Source of the DNA: Erysipelothrix inopinata
GTDB lineage: Bacteria; Bacillota_I; Bacilli_A; Erysipelotrichales; Erysipelotrichaceae
NCBI RefSeq assembly: GCF_014396165.1
Contig: NZ_CP060715.1
Span: forward strand, 1,710,001-1,742,000
Direction: 5' to 3'
Length of the DNA stretch: 32,000 nucleotides
The notes beneath the pieces are model-generated. The model was given only the letters and a program-made list of their open reading frames with translations. It was not told the DNA's origin and made no database searches. The translations under genes and the position numbers were made by a program. This document shows, one piece after another, positions 14,282 through 31,838 of the stretch. Position 1 is the first letter of the stretch, and each line of letters begins with the position of its first letter.

Positions 14282-15541
14282 TTAGTGACCATTTTTTTCT
14301 TTTTTAATATTCTTAAAGATATCTTTCATTGAGAGCTTATTGCCATAATTTAGTGAACCGTAACGATAAATATAAATTGACAGTTTCGCTACAATGATAG
14401 TTGTTGCAATCATAACCAATGAAGAAATTAAGATTTCAATCCAGGATACCGAGGTCAACAGAACTCGAATCGGCATCGTGAATAAAGAAACAAACGGAAT
14501 ATACGAACTTATTTTGGCTAATGAACTCTGCGGCATTTGTAAACTAATTGATGCAATAACAAACGCTACAACAAACAACATTGTGATTGGTGTAACAGCG
14601 GAGTTCACATCTTCCACCTTCGAAACAAGTGATCCAAGTGAAGCATAGATAAATAAATATAATGCATAGCCAAGTACAGAGAATAGCAAATAGAGCAAGA
14701 AAACAGATGGTGTCATCGTATCTTGAAGTATTGCTAAGATCATTGGTGGATAGTTAACTTTATTAACAAGAATTCCTAACACTAAGGTAAGAAGGATTAC
14801 ACCAATTTGCAAGAGCCCAACACACCCCAACGCAGCAACTTTTCCTAAAATCAATGCCTTTGGCTTAGTACTTGTAATCAACAGTTCCATAGTACGGGAG
14901 TCTTTCTCGCGCGCAACCGAGGTTGCAACAGATTGTCCAAAGAATAAGATTAACATGTACATGATAAACATAATCGCGTAGGATACAAAGAACCCTTTAG
15001 AAGCGTCTTTTCCAAACTGTTCAACGACACCTTCAACTTTAATTGACTGTGCTTCATGAACGCGTTGTGTGTCAATTCCAAACGATGAAAGATACTCATC
15101 GGACGCATAACTTTGTAAGGCAGATTGAATCATTCCTTCTTCAAAAGAGTACATACCTTTATCATTAACTAGCATGGTATAAGAAGTCAAAGAATCAATC
15201 ACAAAACCATAGGTTATTTCTTTGTCTTCGATCGCTTGTTTAAGTGCTTCTTTTGATTCATAAACATTAACAGATTGAAGTGCAAGATAACCACTCAGTT
15301 TTTCAGAAGAAACTTCAGAACTCAGAACAAACCCTAAATCGTTTCTTTCCCCTAATGAAGGTGTCACGTTTTCACTCGTTTCAGCAGGTTTCAAGTCCGC
15401 TTTATTAAACATTTTAGAGATTGTTGGAATAGACGCTCCAATAAACATGAAAATACATAATATAATCGTAGTCGTGAGAACACTTTTCTTCTTAATCATT
15501 TCAGAAAATTCGAATTTAAATACAATATTAAAATTATTCAT
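14282..15541 (-). CDS. ABC-2 family transporter permease (NatB/YhaP-like, large extracytoplasmic loop)
   Basis: 419 aa. TM1 at about aa 21-41, a soluble loop of about 140 aa, then 5 clustered TMs in the C-terminal half. 8-nt overlap (ATGAATAA) with the upstream ATPase gene. Confidence 0.85.
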   Translation of the reverse strand: MNNFNIVFKFEFSEMIKKKSVLTTTIILCIFMFIGASIPTISKMFNKADLKPAETSENVTPSLGERNDLGFVLSSEVSSEKLSGYLALQSVNVYESKEALKQAIEDKEITYGFVIDSLTSYTMLVNDKGMYSFEEGMIQSALQSYASDEYLSSFGIDTQRVHEAQSIKVEGVVEQFGKDASKGFFVSYAIMFIMYMLILFFGQSVATSVAREKDSRTMELLITSTKPKALILGKVAALGCVGLLQIGVILLTLVLGILVNKVNYPPMILAILQDTMTPSVFLLYLLFSVLGYALYLFIYASLGSLVSKVEDVNSAVTPITMLFVVAFVIASISLQMPQSSLAKISSYIPFVSLFTMPIRVLLTSVSWIEILISSLVMIATTIIVAKLSIYIYRYGSLNYGNKLSMKDIFKNIKKEKNGH

Positions 15542-16436
15542 GGTCTTCCCTCGCTACTTCTACAAAAATATCTTGAAGACTTGGAATATAATCATCAAAA
15601 TATGATACTTCGAGGTTGTTATCGACACACGACTTCAATAGTTGTTGCTTGGTCAATGACTCAGGGCATGCAACGATAAGCGATTTCTTATCAAATTCCA
15701 AACTTACGTTTAATGTTTCTAGGTGGCTTTCTAATTCATCTCGTTGTGCACTATCAATTCTTAGTTTATTTTTACCCCAGTCTTTTTTTATTGTGCTGAG
15801 TGATCCATTAAGAACAATTCTACCTTTATCAATGATAGCAATATCATCACAGAATGTTTCAACATAACTCATTTGATGACTTGAGAAAATAATAATTCTA
15901 TCCTCAGAAATATATTCAACAAGAGCATCCTGAAACACTTTTGAGTTTACAGGGTCAAGTCCTGAAAATGGTTCATCCAAAATAAGAATATCCGGTTCAT
16001 TTAGAAATGCCTGTGTAATTTGAACTTTTTGTTGGTTTCCTTTTGACAAAGTATCTAATTTACGATTAAGATATTCTTCAATTTCAAATTTCTTAGCCCA
16101 GTATGTTGCAGATTTTCGAGCATCACTACGACTTGCTCCACGCAGCATTGCAAAGTAAATTAATTGATCCATAACTTTAGTTTTAGAATACATACCACGT
16201 TCTTCTGGCAAATATCCAATTTTATAATTCTTAGGGTCGAAAAGTTTTCCATCCATAAGAATTTCACCACTACTTGCTTTGAACACATCCATCATTATAC
16301 GAATAGATGTAGTTTTCCCAGCTCCGTTTCTTCCTAAATATCCGAAAATCTGTCCACTTTTAACCGAAAAGCTAACATCTTTTAGAACATGGAATTCTTC
16401 GAAGTATTTGTTTATACTATTGAATTCTAATTTCAT
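15534..16436 (-). CDS. ABC transporter ATP-binding protein (ABC-2 / NatA-DrrA subfamily)
   Basis: 300 aa. Walker A GRNGAGKTT, signature LSKGNQQKVQ, Walker B ILILDEPFSGLD, H-loop SSHQM, and a C-terminal extension of about 80 aa. Confidence 0.93.
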   Translation of the reverse strand: MKLEFNSINKYFEEFHVLKDVSFSVKSGQIFGYLGRNGAGKTTSIRIMMDVFKASSGEILMDGKLFDPKNYKIGYLPEERGMYSKTKVMDQLIYFAMLRGASRSDARKSATYWAKKFEIEEYLNRKLDTLSKGNQQKVQITQAFLNEPDILILDEPFSGLDPVNSKVFQDALVEYISEDRIIIFSSHQMSYVETFCDDIAIIDKGRIVLNGSLSTIKKDWGKNKLRIDSAQRDELESHLETLNVSLEFDKKSLIVACPESLTKQQLLKSCVDNNLEVSYFDDYIPSLQDIFVEVAREDHE

Positions 16437-16456
16437 AAGTTTCTTTCTCCATGTGA

Positions 16457-17884
16457 TTAAAAAAATCCATCCCGTTCATACGGTTGATGTGTAATACTTG
16501 GTGTTTCCAACTTCAAGGTATAAAAGAACGTTGATCCTTCTCCTACTGTCGACTCCACCCAACACTTGGAGCCCGTAGCATCACATATCGCTTTAACAAT
16601 TGATAAGCCGAGTCCCGAACTTTTTACAGTTCGTTTATGATTTTTATCAATCTTGTAATATCGATCCCAGATATGTTCTAGAATTTCATCAGCGATACCA
16701 ATACCATGATCTGTAACAGAAACAACTATTTCTTCCCCTACTTCATGTGTGTTTATTTCAATAATATTGTCGTCTCCGACATATTTTGTAGCATTATTTA
16801 CAAAATTATAAAGGACTTGTCCCATTTTCACTTCATCAGCCACAACTTTAACCTTAGGTTTAACATTGACCACAAAATCAACATCCATTCCTGAAAATAA
16901 AGAAACTGTTTTTTCGATATGTTTTTGTAAATTAAAGGCCGAGAGTCGGATTTCAAACGCGTTCGCTTCATATTTAGAAAGTGTCAACATATCAGTAACT
17001 AAATTCTCAAGGTGTTCTGTTTCATCTAAGATAACTCCGAGATGCTTCGCACGCATTTCCGGATCATCACCAGATAAGTCCTGAACCATTTCAGCATAAG
17101 CTCGAATCATGGTCAGCGGCGTTTTTATGTCATGTGAGACGTTTGCAACCAAGTCACGGCGAAGTTCATCGGTCTTTTTAAATTCCTGCGTTGCATAGTT
17201 AAGCGTCTTCGAGAGGGCTTTAATCTCGGTGTAATCCTCACCTTCGAAATTAACCGTTAAATCCCCCATAGCCAAACGGTTCGCACTTTCTGTAATACGT
17301 ACAATAGGAAACGATAATTTACGAGCTAAAATAAGCGTAACTATCGTTGCAATAGAAAATATAGATAACGCAATCAATGTGAATTGTTTTTTCAGTACAT
17401 GAACCGTAACATCCGCCAACTGCACAGAACCACTGACAAAAATATAGTAAACATTATCGTTGACCTTACTATATTTCCCCACTAAATGAGTTTCTTGTAG
17501 ATTGGTATCATCGACAAAAGGAATCGACATCACTCCCGATGGCGATTCATATGCCATAATCATATATTCATTGATAGTCGCTTGTGGCAACTCCTTTAAG
17601 AAACAATTACTCTTCACGTCATTAAGATTCGCAAGATTTGTTCCAAAGCCGTTGTAAATAGCTCCACAAAGATTATCGTAGCTTAAAAGCTTATTTGCTG
17701 CATCCCGCGTAGTATCTATCGAACCTTTGGACAACAAGACTTCAATTTCCGAAATTTGATTATCAATAGTTTGAACACGATTTCTTTCATAATATGATTC
17801 AACAAATGTTATTTGAAGAAGCCACAGTATTGAAAGAAGCAATGTTGTGAAAACTAAAAAATAGAACCAAATTCGAAATGCCAT
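16457..17884 (-). CDS. Sensor histidine kinase (two TMs, extracytoplasmic domain of about 140 aa, HAMP, HisKA, HATPase_c)
   Basis: H-box VANVSHDIKTPLT, N-box NFVNNATKY, G1 TDHGIGI, G2 GLGLSIVK. The track start at 17905 is a TTG. ATG 17884 lies 4 nt after the regulator stop and is preferred, but the choice is not resolved. Confidence 0.9.
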   Translation of the reverse strand: MAFRIWFYFLVFTTLLLSILWLLQITFVESYYERNRVQTIDNQISEIEVLLSKGSIDTTRDAANKLLSYDNLCGAIYNGFGTNLANLNDVKSNCFLKELPQATINEYMIMAYESPSGVMSIPFVDDTNLQETHLVGKYSKVNDNVYYIFVSGSVQLADVTVHVLKKQFTLIALSIFSIATIVTLILARKLSFPIVRITESANRLAMGDLTVNFEGEDYTEIKALSKTLNYATQEFKKTDELRRDLVANVSHDIKTPLTMIRAYAEMVQDLSGDDPEMRAKHLGVILDETEHLENLVTDMLTLSKYEANAFEIRLSAFNLQKHIEKTVSLFSGMDVDFVVNVKPKVKVVADEVKMGQVLYNFVNNATKYVGDDNIIEINTHEVGEEIVVSVTDHGIGIADEILEHIWDRYYKIDKNHKRTVKSSGLGLSIVKAICDATGSKCWVESTVGEGSTFFYTLKLETPSITHQPYERDGFF

Positions 17885-17888
17885 GTTT

Positions 17889-18557
17889 TTAGTTGTCGGC
17901 TTCAAACTTGTATCCCGTTCCTCTTACGGTAACAATATAATCACGGTAAGGGCCTAGGTTTTGTCTTAACATCTTAATGTGTGTATCTACAGTACGGTAA
18001 TCACCAAAATAATTATAATTCCAAACTTTATCTAAAAGAACATCTCTCGATAACGCTTGATTTTTATGTTGAACTAAATAAACAAGTAGATCAAATTCTT
18101 TAGGCGTCACTGTAACACGCTCTTCATCAATGATAAGATTGCGGCCTGTGATATCAATTTCAAGAGTATCAAAACGATACACAGAGTGTTTCTTACCTTT
18201 TGAACGTTCAACCGCAACTTTCACACGAGCAATAAGTTCTCGAGGCGAAAAAGGTTTGGTAACGTAGTCATCAATCCCTAATTCAAATCCTAAAAGTTTA
18301 TCAAACTCTTCTTGACGTGCTGAAAGCATGATAACTGGAATGTCTTTTATTTCTTTTATTTGACGACATGCCGTGTAACCATCAAGATTAGGCATCATGA
18401 TATCCAAAATAACAACATCATAGTTACCTGTCTTAATCTTCTCTACCGCTTCAACACCATCTTCTGCTTCATCACATTCAAAGCCAGATACTAACGCGTA
18501 TTCCTTAATGACCTCTCGAATTTTAATTTCGTCATCAACAATTAATAGCTTAATCAT
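17889..18557 (-). CDS. OmpR/PhoB-family response regulator
   Basis: 222 aa. Receiver domain (LIVDDE, VILDIMMP, TKPF) plus a winged-helix output domain (LTPKEFDLL..., TVRGTGYKF). Confidence 0.95.
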   Translation of the reverse strand: MIKLLIVDDEIKIREVIKEYALVSGFECDEAEDGVEAVEKIKTGNYDVVILDIMMPNLDGYTACRQIKEIKDIPVIMLSARQEEFDKLLGFELGIDDYVTKPFSPRELIARVKVAVERSKGKKHSVYRFDTLEIDITGRNLIIDEERVTVTPKEFDLLVYLVQHKNQALSRDVLLDKVWNYNYFGDYRTVDTHIKMLRQNLGPYRDYIVTVRGTGYKFEADN

Positions 18558-18574: not shown

Positions 18575-21500
18575 TTATCTCTTCTCAAACTGATATATAT
18601 CATTAACAATGATTGATTTCTCCTCTTTCATCGTTCCTTTGATTAATATTAGCGCCCCAACCTCTAAGGTTTCTTTAATACTATTATATACTCTTGGAAA
18701 TAATACGCAATCAACATTTCCTGTATCATCGCTGATATTCACAAAAGCCATAAGTTCACCTTTTTTTGTTCGATGTTGTTTTATACGCTCAACCATACCA
18801 ATAAAACGATAAGCTTCTTCTTGAATCCTTAAACTCATTATCGGTGTTGTCTTATGTTTCATACGAAGACTAAGACTTGGATGTTCTGAAAAATAGAAAC
18901 CCAGCACATCCGATTCTTGAGTTAAAATTTCACGTGGACTCTCTTTCACCTCAGTAACCAACGGCTCCGAAATTAAAGAATAATCCAGTTTATCCCCTTC
19001 TATGGTAGATACTTTCACAATGTTTGCATATCGTAGTGCTTCATCAAGTGTCGCAAGCATATTGAGTCGATCATACCCAAAGTAATCAAAAGCCCCAGCT
19101 TTTATCAGATTCTCGAAATTATTTTTCTTGATACCCGCTAAATTCAAACGCGCAATAGCATCGAAAAATGATTGATAAGAACCTTTCAAACTACGTTCTT
19201 GTTCAATTACCTTACTTGTATTATAACTTATTCCCTTAACAACAGTAAAGGGCAAGCGAATTTTGCGCCCTTCAAGCTTGTAAGTGTCATAACTTTTTTC
19301 TAAATTTGGGCCCATTAGAAGTACATTTCTATTTCGGCATTCATCGATGTATTGTTTTGTTTTTGAATCACTACCGATTACACTGCTTAGTAAGTAAGTA
19401 TAGAACATGTATGGATGATTCGCCTTTAGGTAAGCCATTTGATAGGCTATCAAACCATAAGCAACGGAGTGCGATTTATTGAATCCGTAATTCGCAAACT
19501 TAAGTACAAGTGCAAATAACTCTTCCGAAAAGTTCTTATCGTACCCCTGTTTAATACATCCAGATACAAATTGTTGATGAACCGATTCCAACTCTTCAAC
19601 ATTCTTTTTCCCCATCGCTTTTCTCAAAATATCTGCTTCACCCAAGTCAAATCCCGCCATAATTTGCGCAACTTGCATGATCTGTTCCTGATAAATTAAG
19701 ACGCCATAAGTCGATTCTGTTATTTCCTTGAGTTTTGGATGCAAGTACTTAACCGACTTCGGGTTTTCCCGAGCACTTAGATACAGTGGGATGTTTTCCA
19801 TAGGACCTGGGCGATACAACGCAATGGTATCCACGATATCAGAAAATTGGTATGGCTTCATTTTCATCAACAACTTCTTCATACCCTCTGATTCTAACTG
19901 GAATATCCCTACCGTTTCACCTCTACCTATCAAATCATAAGTTTTTTTGTCATCTAATGGTATTGTCATAATGTCAAAGGTTTCAGTAGTTTTTATTTGT
20001 CTTGAAATATTATCAATGATTGTTAAGTTTCTTAAGCCAAGAAAATCTATTTTAATAAGTCCAATTTTTTCAATGTGAACCATATCGTATTGGATACAGT
20101 AAGTCGTATCGTCCATCTGCATCATCGGAACAACACTCAGAAGTGGTTGCTTTGACATAACGATACCCGCCGCGTGAAGTGAAGTATGACGTGGTAACCC
20201 TTCTACTTTTACTGCAAGATTAAACACATCTTGCAATAAGGGATCCGTATCAATCATCGTTTTAAGTCTGCTTTGCTGTTCGTAATTATCTCGCAAGGAT
20301 GCCTGATTCATCAATTTCGTCGCTTGGTCTACTTTCCTTATTGGAACCTGAAGAACACGTGCAACATCACGAAATGCTTGACGGGCTTTTAAAGTACCAA
20401 ATGTCACAATGTGTGCGATATGATTATCCCCATACTTTTCTCGAACATAATCAATCACATCTTGACGACGGTCATCAGGAAAATCGATATCAATATCCGG
20501 CATTGAGATTCTTTTAGGATTTAAAAATCTTTCGAAAAGCAAATTATATTCGATTGGATCAACTTCAGTGATCCCTAAAGAGTATGCAACAAGTGATCCC
20601 GCAGCACTCCCACGACCCGGACCAACATAAATCCCTTCTTGTTTTGCAAAACGAATGATATCGTAGACAATTAAGAAATAATCTTCAAATGACATGGACG
20701 TGATTACAGAAAGTTCATAAGCTAATCGTTCTTTGTACTGCTGATTAAGCTTATTACCCAATCGTTTTTGCAGCCCAAATTGACTCAATTTTTCAAGGTA
20801 ATAAGCATTTTCTACATTTTGTCCCGTTTCAAAACGAGGCAACTCAGTTTTTATACTTAAAATATCGACGTTACAGTCGTTCGCAATCAATTCAGTTTCC
20901 TTCAAAAGTGATTCAGAATAAAGTTCTCTCAATTCCTGTTCAGAATAGAAGTAGCGGTTCGGTGCTGATACCAATGTTTTATCACCAATATAAGTGCCCT
21001 TTTCAATTGCACGTAATGCTCGAAACGCTTCATCATCTGTTTTGTGTTTATAGAAAACTTTTGTCATAGCGACACATTTCACATCATTTAATAATGCAGT
21101 TTCATACAGTTTAAGATTTCGTTCTTTGAAGAAAGCAGATTCTTGATGTGACATACCAATTCTTAAATGTTTAAAAAGAGATTTATACTTTGTAATTTTA
21201 GTTTGAATCAATCCGTAATCTTCATGAATTAATGCTTCCTCAAAACATCCGTTTTCTGAGAACATAATGACATAAAGATTATCCGAGTCTTTAGCTAAAT
21301 CTTCTAGATTAATACGATGATGTTGTGATAATTCAAATGAAATCGCCATAAGACGTTGATACCCGACATTATTCCTTGCAAGAACAAGTGCATCATATTG
21401 TTCTTCATTTTCTTCAATCGTAATTTCCATACCAAATATTGGTTTGATTCCTAAGGTTTGGGCACGAATAAAAAAATCTAACGATCCAAATAGAACATGA

Positions 21501-21619
21501 TAATCAGTTAAAGCAACTGACTTCATACGATTCGATTTCGCAGATTCTAATATTTCATTTAAACTCATCATTCCATTTAGAAGTGAATAATAACTTCTGA
21601 CATTTAAATGAACACTCAT
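18575..21619 (-). CDS. dnaE: DNA polymerase III alpha subunit DnaE
   Basis: About 1014 aa. N-terminal PHP (VHLNVRSYYSLL), palm motifs GPGRGSAAGSLVAYSLGIT and PDIDIDF, IKIDFLGLRNLT, C-terminal OB fold. The track start at 21625 is a GTG. ATG 21619 has GGGGTG 5 nt upstream. Confidence 0.95.
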   Translation of the reverse strand: MSVHLNVRSYYSLLNGMMSLNEILESAKSNRMKSVALTDYHVLFGSLDFFIRAQTLGIKPIFGMEITIEENEEQYDALVLARNNVGYQRLMAISFELSQHHRINLEDLAKDSDNLYVIMFSENGCFEEALIHEDYGLIQTKITKYKSLFKHLRIGMSHQESAFFKERNLKLYETALLNDVKCVAMTKVFYKHKTDDEAFRALRAIEKGTYIGDKTLVSAPNRYFYSEQELRELYSESLLKETELIANDCNVDILSIKTELPRFETGQNVENAYYLEKLSQFGLQKRLGNKLNQQYKERLAYELSVITSMSFEDYFLIVYDIIRFAKQEGIYVGPGRGSAAGSLVAYSLGITEVDPIEYNLLFERFLNPKRISMPDIDIDFPDDRRQDVIDYVREKYGDNHIAHIVTFGTLKARQAFRDVARVLQVPIRKVDQATKLMNQASLRDNYEQQSRLKTMIDTDPLLQDVFNLAVKVEGLPRHTSLHAAGIVMSKQPLLSVVPMMQMDDTTYCIQYDMVHIEKIGLIKIDFLGLRNLTIIDNISRQIKTTETFDIMTIPLDDKKTYDLIGRGETVGIFQLESEGMKKLLMKMKPYQFSDIVDTIALYRPGPMENIPLYLSARENPKSVKYLHPKLKEITESTYGVLIYQEQIMQVAQIMAGFDLGEADILRKAMGKKNVEELESVHQQFVSGCIKQGYDKNFSEELFALVLKFANYGFNKSHSVAYGLIAYQMAYLKANHPYMFYTYLLSSVIGSDSKTKQYIDECRNRNVLLMGPNLEKSYDTYKLEGRKIRLPFTVVKGISYNTSKVIEQERSLKGSYQSFFDAIARLNLAGIKKNNFENLIKAGAFDYFGYDRLNMLATLDEALRYANIVKVSTIEGDKLDYSLISEPLVTEVKESPREILTQESDVLGFYFSEHPSLSLRMKHKTTPIMSLRIQEEAYRFIGMVERIKQHRTKKGELMAFVNISDDTGNVDCVLFPRVYNSIKETLEVGALILIKGTMKEEKSIIVNDIYQFEKR

Positions 21620-21667
21620 GATCACACCCCGCTTTCTCTATTATACCTTAAATAAGAAGCATTCGGG

Positions 21668-22183
21668 TTAACAAGCATAGTAAAAAGTGAAAATTAATCT
21701 TTGAACGATCAAGAGCAAGACTAAAAGGAAGTATGATAATCGCGGATTTTTAATATTATAGAAAAACGACGCAACTAAACTAATTACTAAAATCGCTATA
21801 AAATCATAAAACAAGAGTATATTATCTATAGATTTAACCTTTATTATCATTAAAAATAATGATTGAGATAGCGTGAGAACAAGAATAAAAAATACATTGA
21901 TAAAGTAAAGAAGTTTCATTTTACAGCCAATTCGAATGCGGATCAAATTTTCTAATTGCTTTAAGTTGTTTATTGACGACAGTACAATCACAGCCTTCGT
22001 CGAAATATCAAAAAAGCTAATCCAAATCGTGCTGATATTTTGATACATAAAGCCATATTCAATCAAAAAGAACTCTTGAGGCGAATAATTTAAAGATAAA
22101 TAAACAGCTAAAGAAGAGAAGATAATCCAAATCATTCTCCTCTGTATAATTAGCATATGTCTTATTTTAAATTTCAATAACAT
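21668..22183 (-). CDS. Hypothetical polytopic membrane protein (about 5 TM), last gene of the accessory ABC operon
   Basis: Basic N-terminus (MLLKFKIRHMLIIQRRM) followed by hydrophobic segments (IWIIFSSLAVYLSL, LLYFINVFFILVLTL, FIAILVISLVASFFY, YFLLVLLLIVQ). No family recognised. Start is uncertain: TTG 22189, ATG 22183, ATG 22156 or ATG 22135. The 22183 start overlaps the ATPase end by 17 nt. Confidence 0.5.
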   Translation of the reverse strand: MLLKFKIRHMLIIQRRMIWIIFSSLAVYLSLNYSPQEFFLIEYGFMYQNISTIWISFFDISTKAVIVLSSINNLKQLENLIRIRIGCKMKLLYFINVFFILVLTLSQSLFLMIIKVKSIDNILLFYDFIAILVISLVASFFYNIKNPRLSYFLLVLLLIVQRLIFTFYYAC

Positions 22184-22754
22184 GGTCAAATTCTATTTTA
22201 CTCATGTTTTCTTTATCATGAGATGCAATGATGATTGATTTCCCTTCGACAGATAATTCACTAATAAGTTTAATAAAAGAATCCACACTTACATCATCCA
22301 AGCCCCTAGTAGGCTCATCTAGTAAAATTAAATTTTGGTCTTCCATAATTGCTTGAATGATCCCTAATTTCTGTCTCATACCTAATGAGTATTTTTTTAC
22401 TAAACTCGAATCGTAGAAGTCAAGATAAAACAAACTGCATAGTGATTCTAACTTTTCGATATCATACAAAGATTCTGATTTCAATTTAAAAAGAAAGTCT
22501 AAATTTTCTCGTGCCGTAAAGTTTGGAACAAAACTCGGGTTTTCTATAAGGGCCCCTATTTCCGTCCCTTCGCCATAAATTATCAATCCATCATCAGGCT
22601 CCAACAAACCCGCAATAAGCCGTAGAATCGTTGTTTTACCACTCCCATTACTTCCCTTGATTAAAGTGATATCACCTTTTTCAACACGCAACGATAAATC
22701 ACAAATTATACTTTTTCCACCTAATTTTTTTGAAACATTAATTACTTCCAGCAT
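22167..22754 (-). CDS. Short ABC transporter ATP-binding protein (ABC-2 / lantibiotic-protection-like NBD)
   Basis: Walker A GSNGSGKTT, Q-loop region, signature YSLGMRQKLG, Walker B LILLDEPTRGLD, H-loop ASHD. ATG 22754 (MLEVINVSKKL) has GGAGGA 7 nt upstream, giving 195 aa. The track start at 22772 is a TTG. Confidence 0.88.
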   Translation of the reverse strand: MLEVINVSKKLGGKSIICDLSLRVEKGDITLIKGSNGSGKTTILRLIAGLLEPDDGLIIYGEGTEIGALIENPSFVPNFTARENLDFLFKLKSESLYDIEKLESLCSLFYLDFYDSSLVKKYSLGMRQKLGIIQAIMEDQNLILLDEPTRGLDDVSVDSFIKLISELSVEGKSIIIASHDKENMSKIEFDHVIEI

Positions 22755-22798
22755 CTTTCTATCCTCCATCAATTAATCCTTGTCCATATTTTTCTTTT

Positions 22799-23332
22799 CT
22801 AGATAATCTGTAAAGCTATATAAACATATATGTAGTAAATAACAGCAAAAACATAGATTGCATTTTTGGGTTTGTTTATTTTTTTATCAACCACTATAAA
22901 GGGCATAATTATAAATTTTCCCAGTTCAATTATTAAAATCAGACACAGTTCAAAACTTGGCTTGAACGGATAATGAATCCAAAGATTAAGTGATGTTAAT
23001 ATTACAAACGGAATAGACCATAAAAGCTCATACTTCTTGAGTAAGGTGAAGTAGGATTGACCCAATCGAAGCTGGCTATTGGTATGTACAATGTCGTAGA
23101 AATTAACACGTTCAATCAACAATAGTAGAAAAATCGGAAACAACACCATGGTCAGTCTGGCCTCGTAGAAGGATAAATTTAAGTACTCACTTATGTTTCC
23201 AGCGTCTAAATAAACTGAACCAAGAATTGATTTCCTCTCAACTGCAGTAACAACAACGTAAATAAATGCGATGCCTACAATCATTCGCAAGCTTATTTTT
23301 CTGAAACAAACCTTTCTTGAATGTCGGATCAT
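22799..23332 (-). CDS. Hypothetical polytopic membrane protein (about 5 TM)
   Basis: 177 aa with a basic N-terminus, then IVGIAFIYVVVTAV, LTMVLFPIFLLLLI, LLWSIPFVILTSLNLWI, LCLILIIELGKFIIMPFIVV and AIYVFAVIYYIYVYIALQII. ATGA start/stop overlap with the upstream gene. No family recognised. Confidence 0.6.
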   Translation of the reverse strand: MIRHSRKVCFRKISLRMIVGIAFIYVVVTAVERKSILGSVYLDAGNISEYLNLSFYEARLTMVLFPIFLLLLIERVNFYDIVHTNSQLRLGQSYFTLLKKYELLWSIPFVILTSLNLWIHYPFKPSFELCLILIIELGKFIIMPFIVVDKKINKPKNAIYVFAVIYYIYVYIALQII

Positions 23333-24165
23333 ATTCGCCCCATTCTTTCTAATTGAATAAGTTTCTTAGAAATCCAACGTATCAGCACCAAATAAACAAT
23401 TAAAGAAGCCAGAAAATTAAACATATTTGAAAATGGCAACATAAATAAATCATAGTTTGGAAAAAGCAAGGTTAGTGGATTAATTATCGAAAATAGAGGT
23501 ATTACAAAGGGTACGATTTCGTTAAAGAACGGAAAAATCATTGTAACCAAAGCAAACACAACAACAATACCTGTAGATACAGCAACTGTACCTAACAATA
23601 GTGATAGGTAATATAAATATTTGTTTGGTCTCAACCTGGTTAACATAAACAAACACACATTAGCGATTCCCATTCCAATTGATTGTAGAAAAACACTCAA
23701 TAGAAATTCAATGATTGGATTATTCACTTGTGTCAGGGTATTATTTGTTACTGAAGAAACGAGCTTAACACCACTACTGGGATGCACAATCCATATTGTG
23801 ACAATCACCGCAATATTAATAGCGACACCAAACACAAATCCTCTCATAAATGATTTTAGTTTTTCTCGCTTATAAAAATCTATGATAGATATTCTTTGAA
23901 TGATTAGATAATCCATTCTCGAACTTACAGTCTCGATATTAAATCCATTCAGGAGCATCGGCATAGAAATTAGTAGAATTAGAATATATGGAAAACATCT
24001 GCCACACTGAAAATCACTCATTAGCGATAAAAAAGTATATTCTTCGACAAATATTACTTTTGGTATCTCATTATAAAGATAACTTAATACTACAAGCAAA
24101 ATCACAAGAGAAAATAGCACGTATTGTGCTACTTTCTCACCAATACCTTTGGAAATTCTATTCAT
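23329..24165 (-). CDS. Hypothetical polytopic membrane protein (6-7 TM), possible ABC-2-like permease subunit
   Basis: 278 aa. Its topology (TM1, loop, then clustered TMs) is reminiscent of ABC-2 permeases. TGATG junction with the upstream secreted-protein gene. No family confidently recognised. Confidence 0.62.
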   Translation of the reverse strand: MNRISKGIGEKVAQYVLFSLVILLVVLSYLYNEIPKVIFVEEYTFLSLMSDFQCGRCFPYILILLISMPMLLNGFNIETVSSRMDYLIIQRISIIDFYKREKLKSFMRGFVFGVAINIAVIVTIWIVHPSSGVKLVSSVTNNTLTQVNNPIIEFLLSVFLQSIGMGIANVCLFMLTRLRPNKYLYYLSLLLGTVAVSTGIVVVFALVTMIFPFFNEIVPFVIPLFSIINPLTLLFPNYDLFMLPFSNMFNFLASLIVYLVLIRWISKKLIQLERMGRI

Positions 24166-24572
24166 CAGTTATGGTCCCCATTCCACTTAGCTTTAATAGT
24201 AAGACCATGTGGATCAAAACCGTTTGTATTAACTCTAAGATGCAGTTGCGATCCTCTAGCAGAATCAAACATTGTCACAAGATTGTGACGATATCCTGTC
24301 CCAATTTTAAATGATTTTGAATAATACTGCCTGTTGGAGCTACTTACCATTTGACCTGTTGGCGCTAACCAGGCACTCACATCCCATGTTTCAACAGTTC
24401 CATAAGTACTCGTTGTTTCTTTTGTTGCGTAATCACTCGAGATAACAAATCCCCCTTTTGGTGGAACATATAGGGTTTCTCTACTTGAATATGCTGCATG
24501 AACCGTTTGAAAAATGATAATACATCCCAACATCAATATCACCTTACCAATAATATTGTTTACCCTCTTCAC
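24165..24572 (-). CDS. Small secreted protein of unknown family (Sec signal peptide, cysteine-free mature part of about 109 aa)
   Basis: GTG 24572 has GAAGGAGGGG upstream, with the GGAGG core 7 nt from the start. Signal peptide MKRVNNIIGKVILMLGCIIIFQTVHA/AYSS. The mature part is rich in S/T/G/Y, beta-strand-like, and carries net charge about +3. The track's ATG 24620 lies upstream of the predicted -10 and so is probably outside the transcript. Confidence 0.6.
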   Translation of the reverse strand: MKRVNNIIGKVILMLGCIIIFQTVHAAYSSRETLYVPPKGGFVISSDYATKETTSTYGTVETWDVSAWLAPTGQMVSSSNRQYYSKSFKIGTGYRHNLVTMFDSARGSQLHLRVNTNGFDPHGLTIKAKWNGDHN

Positions 24573-24597
24573 CGTTACCCCTCCTTCTAGCCTCGGC

Positions 24598-24606
24598 ATT
24601 ATAACA
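24598..24606 (-). promoter_or_regulatory. Extended -10 promoter element of the accessory operon
   Basis: The minus strand reads TGtTATAAT about 26 nt upstream of the GTG start. No good -35 is present, as is common for extended -10 promoters. It lies between the nrnA terminator and the SD. Confidence 0.45.
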
Positions 24607-24663
24607 TATGCATGAACCATCTTGTTTTCCTAATGTTAAGTGTTAAAAAAATTGATATATTCG

Positions 24664-24690
24664 TAAAAAAAAGAGACCTGAATGGTCTCT
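24664..24690 (-). terminator. Rho-independent terminator after nrnA
   Basis: Minus-strand RNA reads AGAGACC-ATTCA-GGTCTCT followed by 8 T, starting immediately after the nrnA stop (24691-24693). Confidence 0.7.
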
Positions 24691-25617
24691 TTAGTTTTGA
24701 CTGATTTCTGCGAGCTTCGCAATGATTTCTTGAACTTCTTCAAATGAAATATCACCGATACCACAAGCAAGACGGTGTCCTCCACCGCGATATTCGTTAG
24801 CTAGATCACTGACTGTAGCAGATCGTGAACGAAGTGATGCTGTATAGCGACCATCTTCCTTCTCAGCAAAGATTGCCCAGATAGCAAACTCTTCAATGCC
24901 ACTCATCATATTAACTTGATCTTTTGCACCACGGTCAGTGATGCCAAGCGAATCCTGAGTTTTTTTATCGACAATAGCATAAGCAAAAGCATTATTCCAT
25001 TGTACGAGGTTTTGTAATGTGCGACGCACTTCAAAGAATGTTAGTGATCTGTTAAATATTTTCGCATTCAACTCACTAATATTCGCACCATTTTCAAGTA
25101 AGAAGGCTGCTGACATTAGTGTTTGAGCTGAAGTATTTTCAATTGAGAATCGAATTGTATCTGTTAAAATACCTGATAATGTTGTATTCGCAATCTCATC
25201 ATTCATTTTCAAATCACATGCTTTGAAGATATCTGCAACGATTTCACAGGCACTTCCGCGTGTTGTATCGACAATTTGTAAATCTCCATATTGATCAACT
25301 TCGAGATGATGATCAATCTTAATGATTTTTTCTGCTTTTAAGTATGTATCTGAATCGATACGATCTTGGTTTGCTGTGTCAATAACGATAGCGAGGAAAA
25401 CATCTGCTAGTTCAGGATTTTCCATTTTGTCATAAATTTTAAATCCATGATCATCTTGTCCAAAAGTATGTACGTGCTTATTAGGATAATTATAGCGCAA
25501 CCACTTTGTCATCCCAAGTTGTGAACCCAGTGCATCACCATCCGGATTGGTGTGACGATACACATAGATTGTGTCGTAAGCTTCTACAAGATTTAAGAAT
25601 TCTTGCGTATTATACAT
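24691..25617 (-). CDS. nrnA: DHH/DHHA1 bifunctional oligoribonuclease / pAp phosphatase NrnA
   Basis: DHH motifs HTNPDGDALGS, VIDTAN, KIDHHLE and DHHA1 GGGHRLACG. ATG 25617 (MYNTQEFLNLVEAYDTIYVYRH) matches the family N-terminus. The track start at 25644 is a TTG inside ackA. 8-nt overlap with ackA. Confidence 0.9.
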   Translation of the reverse strand: MYNTQEFLNLVEAYDTIYVYRHTNPDGDALGSQLGMTKWLRYNYPNKHVHTFGQDDHGFKIYDKMENPELADVFLAIVIDTANQDRIDSDTYLKAEKIIKIDHHLEVDQYGDLQIVDTTRGSACEIVADIFKACDLKMNDEIANTTLSGILTDTIRFSIENTSAQTLMSAAFLLENGANISELNAKIFNRSLTFFEVRRTLQNLVQWNNAFAYAIVDKKTQDSLGITDRGAKDQVNMMSGIEEFAIWAIFAEKEDGRYTASLRSRSATVSDLANEYRGGGHRLACGIGDISFEEVQEIIAKLAEISQN

Positions 25618-31304: not shown

Positions 31305-31838
31305 TTGCAAACTATGCGAAAACGAATTGTTTTGATTGCATTCACATCAATAGCAGTTCTCTCACTATTTGTTGTCTTATACGATCAATTTAAACCCAAA
31401 ACGAATGCTTTAGCACGTACAGCGACTACAACCGATAATGTTATCGCAACATCACAATCTTTCAGTGATGTGTCCAACTATTTTAAGACGAATCCCGGAA
31501 CCCATGTTCTCTTCGTTAGAGATTCAAGTTCTGATTCTGATTATGTTGTCGATAATCTCTTATCACCACTCGCTCACGAGCACGACGTTCGACCTACTCC
31601 CAACATTGTGAGTGTCGACATGAGTGAAACTAAAGATTTATCCGTCACACGTTTAAAATCAACACTCGGTATTGAAAAATATCCAGCGTTTGTACTTGTA
31701 ACGACAAATAATGAAAAGAATTCATTTAGCGTTGATTCAGTGATTGAATATGACAAGAAGAAACCTTTCTCAGTCACAGACTTAAGAAAATGGTTCTTCG
31801 ATAATAAATTATGGACTGGACCTTACGGAGACAATTAA
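31305..31838 (+). CDS. Membrane-anchored thioredoxin-fold-like protein lacking any cysteine
   Basis: 177 aa (or 174 aa from ATG 31314). N-terminal TM (IVLIAFTSIAVLSLFVVLY). HVLFVRDSSSDSDYV sits where Trx-fold proteins carry CxxC, and GIEKYPAFVLV resembles the cis-Pro loop. No Cys in the whole protein. The fold assignment is by eye only. Confidence 0.55.
   Translation: MQTMRKRIVLIAFTSIAVLSLFVVLYDQFKPKTNALARTATTTDNVIATSQSFSDVSNYFKTNPGTHVLFVRDSSSDSDYVVDNLLSPLAHEHDVRPTPNIVSVDMSETKDLSVTRLKSTLGIEKYPAFVLVTTNNEKNSFSVDSVIEYDKKKPFSVTDLRKWFFDNKLWTGPYGDN

Follow-up and report, generated by a model that had tools for sequence, protein, structure and literature searches.

A putative ABC exporter operon with an exported partner protein lies in a hyper-divergent slot between nrnA and dnaE of Erysipelothrix inopinata

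Between nrnA and dnaE of Erysipelothrix inopinata lie five consecutive open reading frames (ORFs), all on the minus strand and running from 24572 to 21668 of the 32-kb stretch of DNA that was analyzed, which we refer to as the window and whose coordinates are used throughout. Together they form a cassette that encodes a small exported protein, three membrane proteins and an ATP-binding cassette (ABC) ATPase, here named P1 to P5 in the order of transcription.

24165 to 24572, minus strand: P1, GTG start, a 135-amino-acid (aa) precursor with a Sec-type signal peptide
23329 to 24165, minus strand: P2, a 278-aa polytopic membrane protein, overlapping P1 by TGATG
22799 to 23332, minus strand: P3, a 177-aa membrane protein with about five transmembrane (TM) helices, overlapping P2 by ATGA
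22167 to 22754, minus strand: P4, a 195-aa ABC ATPase, preceded by a 44-nucleotide (nt) gap with a GGAGGA Shine-Dalgarno sequence
21668 to 22183, minus strand: P5, a 171-aa membrane protein with about five TM helices, its start overlapping the end of P4

An earlier first-pass annotation, made from the letters of the sequence, had described a five-gene minus-strand operon chained by these junctions, and all of them (TGATG, ATGA, the 44-nt gap with GGAGGA and the P4/P5 overlap) are present. The last suggests that translation of P5 is coupled to that of P4. The best start of P5 is the ATG at 22183, giving 171 aa, and the same start is annotated in contig L011 of the E. inopinata clade; the 135-aa start of P1 agrees with RefSeq WP_187533515.1 and with a 135-aa homologue, P0032. 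Database entries exist for P1 to P4 (QNN60386.1 to QNN60383.1; CAM4199236 to CAM4199407) and are annotated as hypothetical except for the ATPase, whereas the P5 ORF is kept in the sister metagenome-assembled genome (MAG; contig L001) although no gene was called there. Could the ORFs other than that of the ATPase be spurious or decaying, and the block a functionless remnant? Four of the five products are family-less in all libraries, and the P5 gene is uncalled in some assemblies. On the other side, all five frames remain open, without indels and at identical lengths, in alleles with 52-77% amino-acid identity; the ratio of nonsynonymous to synonymous divergence (dN/dS) of the cassette genes is 0.10-0.38 across alleles (0.10-0.23 for the window against L001); the genes are linked by junctions of the translational-coupling type; and homologues at only 20-30% identity are retained in other loci with the same gene set and motifs. 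Because the frames stay open at equal length and dN/dS is well below 1, the five genes are real rather than chance ORFs, and all five are under purifying selection. The idea of a remnant is effectively refuted.

The signals that surround these genes are as follows.

24670 to 24692, minus strand: intrinsic terminator of nrnA, a 9-bp stem with a T-run, the upstream boundary of the operon; kept in L001 and L002
24598 to 24606, minus strand: extended -10 element TGTTATAAT, read in the sequence upstream of P1
24580 to 24586, minus strand: Shine-Dalgarno sequence AAGGAGG, 7 nt upstream of the P1 GTG
24108 to 24138, minus strand: hairpin with a U-rich tail, 13-bp stem, 27 nt past the P1 stop and within P2 codons 10-19
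21640 to 21645, minus strand: TATAAT in the 48-nt spacer between P5 and dnaE

Judged by its signals, the operon is transcribed from its own extended -10 promoter. The promoter block TATGTTATAATGC(C/T)GAGGCTAGAAGGAGGGG is conserved in L001 and L002 while the adjoining spacer has diverged, and a sister allele with only ~68% coding-sequence identity still retains the whole block of -10 element, untranslated region (UTR) and Shine-Dalgarno sequence. Both this element and the nrnA terminator had been proposed by the first-pass annotation, and both were found. The position of the -10 element implies a 5' UTR of ~20 nt, too short to hold a riboswitch; the idea of a riboswitch or leader RNA was rejected, no Rfam family matching in the region. 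The hairpin behind P1 has a folding free energy (dG) of -25.3 kcal/mol and a z-score of -4.8 in the window. Contig L009 also has it in strong form (z -6.7), with a G-U pair changed to G-C, whereas L001 has a weak version (z -1.0) and the distant cassette L005 has none. It may be a partial terminator or attenuator that raises P1 relative to the transporter genes; alternatively, it may be the mRNA-stabilising end of a transcript that carries P1 only. At the other end of the operon no terminator-like site is found between P5 and dnaE, in line with the earlier reading. Within the P5-dnaE spacer (21620-21667) the TATAAT, a Shine-Dalgarno sequence and ATG 21619 are almost invariant in L001 and L009, while the cassette beside them is 20-40% diverged; the last ~60 nt of P5 are conserved as well. 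The conserved TATAAT suggests that dnaE has its own promoter, and dnaE is probably served both by it and by read-through from the cassette. The start of dnaE is probably ATG 21619 (1014 aa) and not GTG 21625 of the ORF list.

P4 is the only product with a recognizable family, as had been noted earlier: P1, P2, P3 and P5 have no match in Pfam, NCBIfam, PADLOC, PHROGs or PDB sequences. P4 matches Pfam ABC_tran with 83.5 bits (cut-off 25), has all catalytic motifs, among them the Walker A, YSLGMRQKLG, Walker B and H-loop motifs listed by the first-pass annotation, and lacks a C-terminal domain; in PADLOC, a library of models for known anti-phage defence systems, it gives generic P-loop matches only, so that no product of the cassette specifically matches a defence system. 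Its best NCBIfam match is galliderm_ABC (TIGR03740, a lantibiotic-protection ATPase) with 125 bits against a cut-off of 309.75, followed by L_ocin_972_ABC (TIGR03608) with 96.6 bits against 254.85, and CcmA models with 92 bits against CcmA cut-offs of 131.6-195 bits. Among solved chains NosF comes closest (105 bits, E 4e-29), and the other solved relatives are ABCA3/4/7/1, PmtC and soluble ABC-F proteins, EcfA reaching only 65 bits. By sequence P4 belongs to the type-V (ABC-2/ABCA/ABCG/NosF) exporter class of nucleotide-binding domains (NBDs). At the position of the Q-loop it carries Glu71 (codon 22541-22543), which aligns with a Gln of EttA and a Glu of NosF, and the surrounding GALIENP does not vary among six cassette ATPases with 50-81% identity. 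Such a Glu-for-Gln replacement, the E-loop, has been described as a hallmark of LanF (bioRxiv 10.1101/2025.10.09.681468). Because NosF has the same Glu, the E-loop marks a subclass rather than a family and is not diagnostic for LanF.

The three membrane proteins, already described as dissimilar from the letters, are mutually unrelated (hhalign probability <= 1.2%); by the same measure, the ideas that P3 and P5 are paralogues of each other or two halves of P2 were rejected. When all members of the P2, P3 and P5 alignments were scanned at E <= 10, no recurrent weak match came up, and searches of PDB sequences with family profiles of P1, P2, P3 and P5 gave nothing usable. From hydropathy and charge, P2 is predicted to have its N-terminus inside and about six TM helices, with basic residues in the loop that joins TM2 to TM3 and possibly a re-entrant segment, a pattern that fits the type-V fold (six TM helices, a coupling helix after TM2 and a re-entrant segment between TM5 and TM6); the invariant residues of P2 are Q161, G164, G166, T176-R177 and N229-P230-L231. 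In P3, TM2 is nearly invariant and the predicted first outer loop (residues 36-57) is hypervariable. P2 has no ABC2_membrane match in Pfam, and its Foldseek matches are non-significant (E >= 0.9), with ABCA4, ABCA1, ABCG25, NosY and CcmB among them (E >= 3). The pattern and these names hint at P2 as a candidate type-V (ABC-2-like) permease, and the assignment is a hint only, because the structural model is poor and the fold matches are non-significant. An importer for a nutrient or cofactor, either of the energy-coupling factor (ECF) type or dependent on a binding protein, would cast P1 as a scavenger and P3 and P5 as the substrate-specific components. The sizes loosely recall ECF modules (a T-like protein of 278 aa, S-like proteins of ~170 aa and one ATPase), as do the 65 bits between P4 and EcfA. 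We regard such an importer as very improbable: P4 groups with exporter-type NBDs and not with those of importers or ECF systems, no CbiQ/EcfT, S-component or substrate-binding-protein match appears for P2, P3 and P5 even at E <= 10, P1 is modelled as a small all-beta protein and not as an alpha/beta binding protein, and the deep allelic diversity described below would be unexpected for a nutrient importer.

The signal peptide of P1 is predicted to span residues ~1-26, with a basic n-region, a hydrophobic core and cleavage after VHA, and the motif Q-x-[VI]-[HS]-A is kept in every member of the family. The mature protein has 109 aa, ~12.1 kDa and an isoelectric point (pI) of 9.3 and is free of Cys; across the family, mature proteins have 105-109 aa, ~12 kDa, no Cys, a pI of 8.2-9.3 and 13-17% aromatic residues. 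P1 has no LPXTG motif, no C-terminal TM helix and no conserved lipobox. A lipoprotein was rejected as an identity, the sole Cys of the signal peptide (Cys17) being Leu in P0032. The AlphaFold2 model, built from an alignment of six sequences, has a mean predicted local distance difference test (pLDDT) score of 83, and ~90 for the mature part, and confidently predicts that mature P1 is an all-beta jelly-roll or beta-sandwich. Compared with PDB and BFVD by Foldseek, it retrieves generic jelly-rolls only, at template-modelling (TM) scores of 0.4-0.54, including PirA, CBM6, a TNF-like lectin, Ena subunits and phage fibre domains; neither lactococcin 972 nor LanI is among the top 50 PDB matches.

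Which known systems does this set of proteins resemble? Lactococcin 972 is a small beta-sandwich that binds lipid II and inhibits septum formation. Loci of its type (lcn972-orf2-orf3; pneumococcal scbABC) encode a Sec-exported beta-sandwich bacteriocin followed by presumed immunity/ABC genes (PMC4055356, PMC11796350). As in these loci, the first gene of the cassette specifies an unmodified protein with a Sec-type signal peptide (by sequence, in the case of P1), predicted to be a beta-sandwich and served by no dedicated processing transporter; membrane protein genes and an ABC ATPase gene follow in the operon, and L_ocin_972_ABC is among the best NCBIfam matches of P4. The loci differ in that they have three genes instead of five, a mature protein of 66 aa instead of 109 aa, and one large multi-TM immunity protein (TIGR01654, 7-TM) instead of three unrelated small membrane proteins, none of which matches it. 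P1 matches neither PF09683 nor TIGR01653, and P4 is far under the family cut-off. Membership in the lactococcin 972 family was rejected on structural family, three-gene layout and model cut-offs alike.

The lantibiotic self-protection transporters LanFEG (NisFEG, NukFEG-NukH, Epi/GdmFEG-H) are likewise type-V ABC systems with one ATPase gene and several distinct membrane subunits. Their ATPase has the E-loop Glu and is the best NCBIfam match of P4, and the parts list is similar once an extracellular protein, LanI, is added. LanE and LanG, however, are two homologous 6-TM ABC-2 permeases, whereas P2, P3 and P5 (278, 177 and 171 aa) share no homology with one another, do not have the expected sizes and match neither; P4 is below the TIGR03740 cut-off; LanI is a lipoprotein, whereas P1 has no conserved lipobox Cys; and LanFEG is linked to lantibiotic biosynthesis genes, of which none lies in the window. 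Membership was rejected here as well, the only shared feature that holds being the E-loop, which is not exclusive. The suspicion of the first-pass annotation that the subunit set corresponds neither to lactococcin 972 nor to LanFEG is thus borne out by gene count, by family models and by the P4 scores under cut-offs.

Other resemblances are confined to parts lists. NosDFY(L) includes NosF, the closest solved relative of P4, with the E-loop Glu, and links an ABC transporter of type V with an extracytoplasmic protein that is all beta. It differs from the cassette in its large beta-helix protein NosD, its one ABC-2 permease NosY and the C-terminal domain of NosF (308 aa against 195 aa in P4), and the window has no nos genes or N2O reductase context. 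CcmABCDE (System I) combines an ATPase of ~200 aa with several small membrane proteins that are unlike one another and with a small extracytoplasmic protein of all-beta fold; here the CcmA cut-offs are missed, CcmB, CcmC and CcmE find no matches, no cytochrome c context is evident, and P1 is predicted to be cleaved and soluble whereas its counterpart is membrane-anchored. In an ECF importer one would expect an EcfT/CbiQ protein and S-components, families that P2, P3 and P5 do not match. CcmABCDE, NosDFY and ECF identities were accordingly rejected. On this evidence the cassette is a previously undescribed operon, classed as a putative ABC exporter with an exported partner, and four of its products belong to orphan protein families. 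Operons of orphan genes are in themselves common.

The relatives that do exist carry the same genes. An exhaustive search with a hidden Markov model (HMM) profile of P1 over 1.84 billion cluster representatives returned the sister allele and three other small secreted relatives, plus two weak matches to repeat proteins; the cassette amounts to ~5 clusters among these representatives, all apparently Erysipelotrichaceae-like. A word-indexed search of 5.8 billion proteins with P1, P2 and a P2 profile returned only Erysipelothrix alleles and L005, P1 being represented by two 90% clusters only. No cassette relative was found in plasmid and phage collections or JGI metagenomes. All three distant P1 relatives (3/3) adjoin cassette genes. 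In L005 the order is that of the window (P1-like, 289 aa, 186 aa, ABC of 203 aa, 159 aa). In L008 the secreted protein comes last (305 aa, 184 aa, ABC of 203 aa, 166 aa, P1-like), and the short contigs L006/L007 show ABC, a P5-like protein of 157 aa, and P1-like. P1 is thus first in the window, L001, L009 and L005, and last in L008 and L006/L007. In these distant cassettes the ATPase is 50-55% identical to its window counterpart, P1 26-40% and the membrane proteins 20-30%, with motifs in common; cassettes lacking P1 were not found. Outside the E. inopinata clade the cassette is extremely rare and lies in other genomic neighbourhoods. L008 has rplM-rpsI and a GNAT gene on one side and phosphatase-like genes on the other; its L13 is >= 90% identical to that of a MAG named Erysipelothrix sp., which makes its source Erysipelothrix-like. 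L005 has an extracytoplasmic-function (ECF) sigma factor, VanY and an M23 peptidase nearby. On these comparisons the five-gene family is real, strictly co-inherited and extremely rare.

Two side observations belong here. The neighbours in L005 (3620-8026) are, in full, the ECF sigma factor, a family-less 420-aa protein that is possibly an anti-sigma factor, the VanY carboxypeptidase and the M23 peptidase with an SH3_5 domain (lysostaphin-like); the surroundings are of a cell-wall-remodelling or lytic type and may be tied to the cassette. The two repeat proteins matched by the P1 profile, P0035 (1739 aa) and P0037 (1947 aa), are giants with weak matches in multiple stretches (E 3e-5 and 8e-4), one having about nine tandem Thr/Asn/Gly-rich repeats of ~93 aa and the other FN3-like repeats, eukaryotic-looking. 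They were rejected as true relatives of P1, the similarity being probably compositional or that of generic beta-sandwiches.

Within the E. inopinata clade, to which the slot comparison extends, the nrnA-dnaE slot holds the same five genes in every contig fetched (the window, L001-L003, L011 and L012), and in L009 the dnaE-side junction is the only one visible. A scan of genome contigs for nrnA returned only the sister MAG, and the 90% clusters of the flanking proteins contain no other species. The sequences in the slot fall into at least four deep allele classes, at ~93, 80 and 68% nucleotide identity. Between the window and L001 the flanks show ~92% nucleotide identity, 95-100% amino-acid identity and a synonymous divergence (dS) of 0.24-0.8; in the cassette, nucleotide identity falls to 57-75% without a single indel, and dS runs from 1.1 to saturated, values above ~1 being readable only as much larger than in the flanks. 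Amino-acid identity to L001 is 76-77% for P1, 71-73% for P4, 62-66% for P2, 52-62% for P3 and 52-54% for P5, the ranges giving whole-gene alignment and BLAST-aligned part. Against L012 the cassette is again the more diverged (dS 0.16-0.32, flanks 0.05-0.11). Against L011 the relation is reversed, with dS of 0-0.03 in the cassette and 0.12-0.25 in the flanks. This near-identical tract also spans dnaE and the response regulator gene; the single interruption is a 400-nt mosaic patch in 5' dnaE (21106-21506), which has 36 mismatches, whereas the rest of the ~7-kb tract is <= 1% diverged. L009 represents a fourth allele class, ~80% identical to the window throughout. Divergence is sharply bounded at the P1 promoter and fades across the first ~2 kb of dnaE, into which it extends in all comparisons. 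The genealogy of the cassette is, as these values indicate, decoupled from that of its flanks.

Is the cassette a recent arrival? Total GC is 0.27-0.33 in P2-P5 and 0.35-0.39 in the flanks, while GC at third codon positions (GC3) is 0.27-0.36 in the cassette and 0.18-0.32 in the flanks. Since GC3 is flank-like, the dip in GC reflects the amino-acid composition of membrane proteins at codon positions 1 and 2, a confounding that the first-pass annotation had suspected, and a foreign base composition was rejected. No mobility or biosynthetic genes lie in the window, whose remainder is housekeeping (rnc, recG, fakA, asp23, murG, ruvAB, obg, prp, rplU, smc, ftsY, ylxM and ackA), together with a deacetylase and a two-component system with an ABC-2 exporter. 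Flank-like GC3 and the lack of mobility or biosynthetic genes imply that the diversity is old and resident rather than due to recent insertion. The simplest reading is that this is an old resident locus, whose deep alleles are kept in the population and swapped between lineages by homologous recombination through the flanks. Comparable shuffling of alleles by recombination is described at bacteriocin/immunity loci such as blp (PMC11796350). The first-pass annotation had proposed a variable slot with strain-specific cargo. The variation is there in sequence and not in presence or absence, and accessory status is not supported at this depth: as in the outcome that the first-pass annotation had named as its refutation, the same genes stand in the same place in every clade contig fetched, and GC3 is flank-like.

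Two neighbours in the window deserve mention. The genes directly downstream of dnaE (14282-18557, minus strand) encode a response regulator of the OmpR type, a histidine kinase with a HAMP domain, an ABC ATPase resembling DrrA and a permease of the ABC2_membrane_3 family; they look like a sensing-plus-efflux module, a type often tied to antimicrobial peptides, and are kept in L001, L011 and L012. Upstream of smc on the opposite strand, at 31305-31838 (plus strand), is a 177-aa ORF with no Pfam family, whose counterpart in L001 (735-1259) and L011 is a 174-aa gene at the same place and in the same orientation.

What could the cassette do? We tentatively read P1 as a secreted protein that antagonizes or binds, and the other four products as an ABC machine dedicated to self-protection, a possibility that we rate somewhat below an even chance. 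Exported by Sec, P1 would reach the cell surface or medium and act as a protein antagonist of competing relatives by binding a component of their envelope. A dimer of P4 would pair with two membrane proteins that serve as transmembrane domains, and the third would be an accessory or specificity subunit; this machine would protect the producer by keeping P1, or the target of P1, off the producer's membrane, and the hairpin at 24108-24138 could raise the ratio of P1 to transporter. Deep alleles would persist at a single chromosomal site through frequency-dependent selection on producer and immunity specificities, and would be shuffled between lineages by homologous recombination within the conserved flanks. 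Such a system would work like lactococcin 972 (lclABC) or a LanFEG/LanI module without belonging to either. Several observations are consistent with it. P1 comes first behind a conserved strong promoter and, in the E. inopinata alleles, is followed by a strong hairpin with a U-tail, an arrangement common for a structural gene followed by immunity genes. The predicted fold of P1 is of a type used in binding modules (PirA, CBM6, lectins). The best family-level matches of P4, to lantibiotic-protection and lactococcin-972 ATPases, and its E-loop point the same way, as does the coincidence of the divergence island with the operon. A bacteriocin or self-protection role, as suggested by the first-pass annotation, therefore remains plausible and is strengthened by the allelic pattern.

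Other observations weigh against an antagonist. P1 matches no bacteriocin family or known toxin in Pfam or NCBIfam at E <= 1, Lactococcin_972 included, and hhalign of the P1 family with an approximate Lcn972 sequence gives a probability of 0.2%. Against L001, P1 is the best conserved non-ATPase part (77% against 52-62%) and has the lowest dN/dS (0.10), a degree of conservation that is not as expected for a diversifying toxin. The cassette has no regulator or quorum-sensing gene. Three unrelated membrane proteins exceed the needs of any immunity ABC system that we know of, and the AlphaFold2 model of P2 has a pLDDT of only 54. The E-loop, being also in NosF, is non-diagnostic, and raised allelic diversity is equally expected at surface or phage-receptor loci.

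This last point leads to a different explanation, in which P1 is an adhesin, lectin or fibre subunit associated with the wall, the other four products form a platform for its assembly or anchoring, and pressure from phage or host drives the diversity. A divergence island with shuffled alleles would fit such a surface structure or receptor locus, the predicted outer loops P2 129-149 and P3 36-57 are among the most variable segments, and the jelly-roll of P1 weakly matches Ena endospore-appendage subunits, lectins and phage tail-fibre domains. Yet the TM-scores to Ena are poor (0.25-0.46), and the N-terminal strand of P1 is modelled within the sandwich at high confidence, with no sign of a free donor strand. 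The exposed protein, P1, is the least variable non-ATPase component, while certain cytoplasmic segments vary as much as the outer loops, and subunits exported by Sec need no ABC exporter. We consider a surface locus of this kind improbable.

The conservation of P1 is better accommodated if the cassette protects the envelope against an exogenous peptide or an antibiotic directed at lipid II, like LanFEG, BcrAB or CprABC, with P1 as an extracellular binding accessory similar to LanI and unanchored. The class of P4 and its E-loop fit such a detoxification exporter, as do the binding-module fold predicted for P1 and its place as most conserved non-ATPase part. Variability is highest in the membrane proteins, which would be natural if substrate specificity lay with them, and modules of a peptide-sensing type are near: the two-component system with ABC-2 exporter downstream of dnaE and, near L008, a two-component system with an FtsX-type ABC transporter. 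These two-component systems, however, do not adjoin the cassette, dnaE or other genes lying in between, and their linkage to it is unproven. Homology to LanE/G, LanI and LanH is lacking, and so are cassettes without P1. P1 has no membrane or wall anchor, and a freely diffusing binder would therefore be an inefficient shield. Taken together, protection against foreign compounds seems to us rather unlikely, though it is the main rival of a secreted antagonist.

Returning to a secreted antagonist with its own immunity, the boldest form of this proposal would be a new class of Sec-dependent bacteriocins: a 12-kDa jelly-roll toxin, with immunity conferred by an E-loop ATPase acting with three membrane proteins that are unrelated to one another. 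The locus would then serve kin discrimination in Erysipelothrix, its ancient, balanced and mutually incompatible alleles being maintained at a recombination hot spot abutting dnaE, and would comprise four new protein families. In this complete form the proposal is doubtful.

The practical reach of the finding is limited for now, given that the cassette is confined to few Erysipelotrichaceae-like lineages and that everything beyond its anatomy and evolution is inference. Its five-gene co-inheritance, its rarity and the island of divergence nonetheless make it a well-defined and testable candidate for an antagonism/immunity system. If P1 is indeed an antagonist guarded by P2 to P5, the locus would represent a structurally new protein antagonist and a new architecture of immunity transporter, with four families absent from Pfam and NCBIfam. 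It would also offer a compact natural system, with at least four allele classes in one slot, for the co-evolution and recombinational exchange of toxin and immunity. Regardless of function, a hyper-divergent, recombining island sits amid core housekeeping genes of Erysipelothrix inopinata, and its divergence spills over into the essential gene dnaE.

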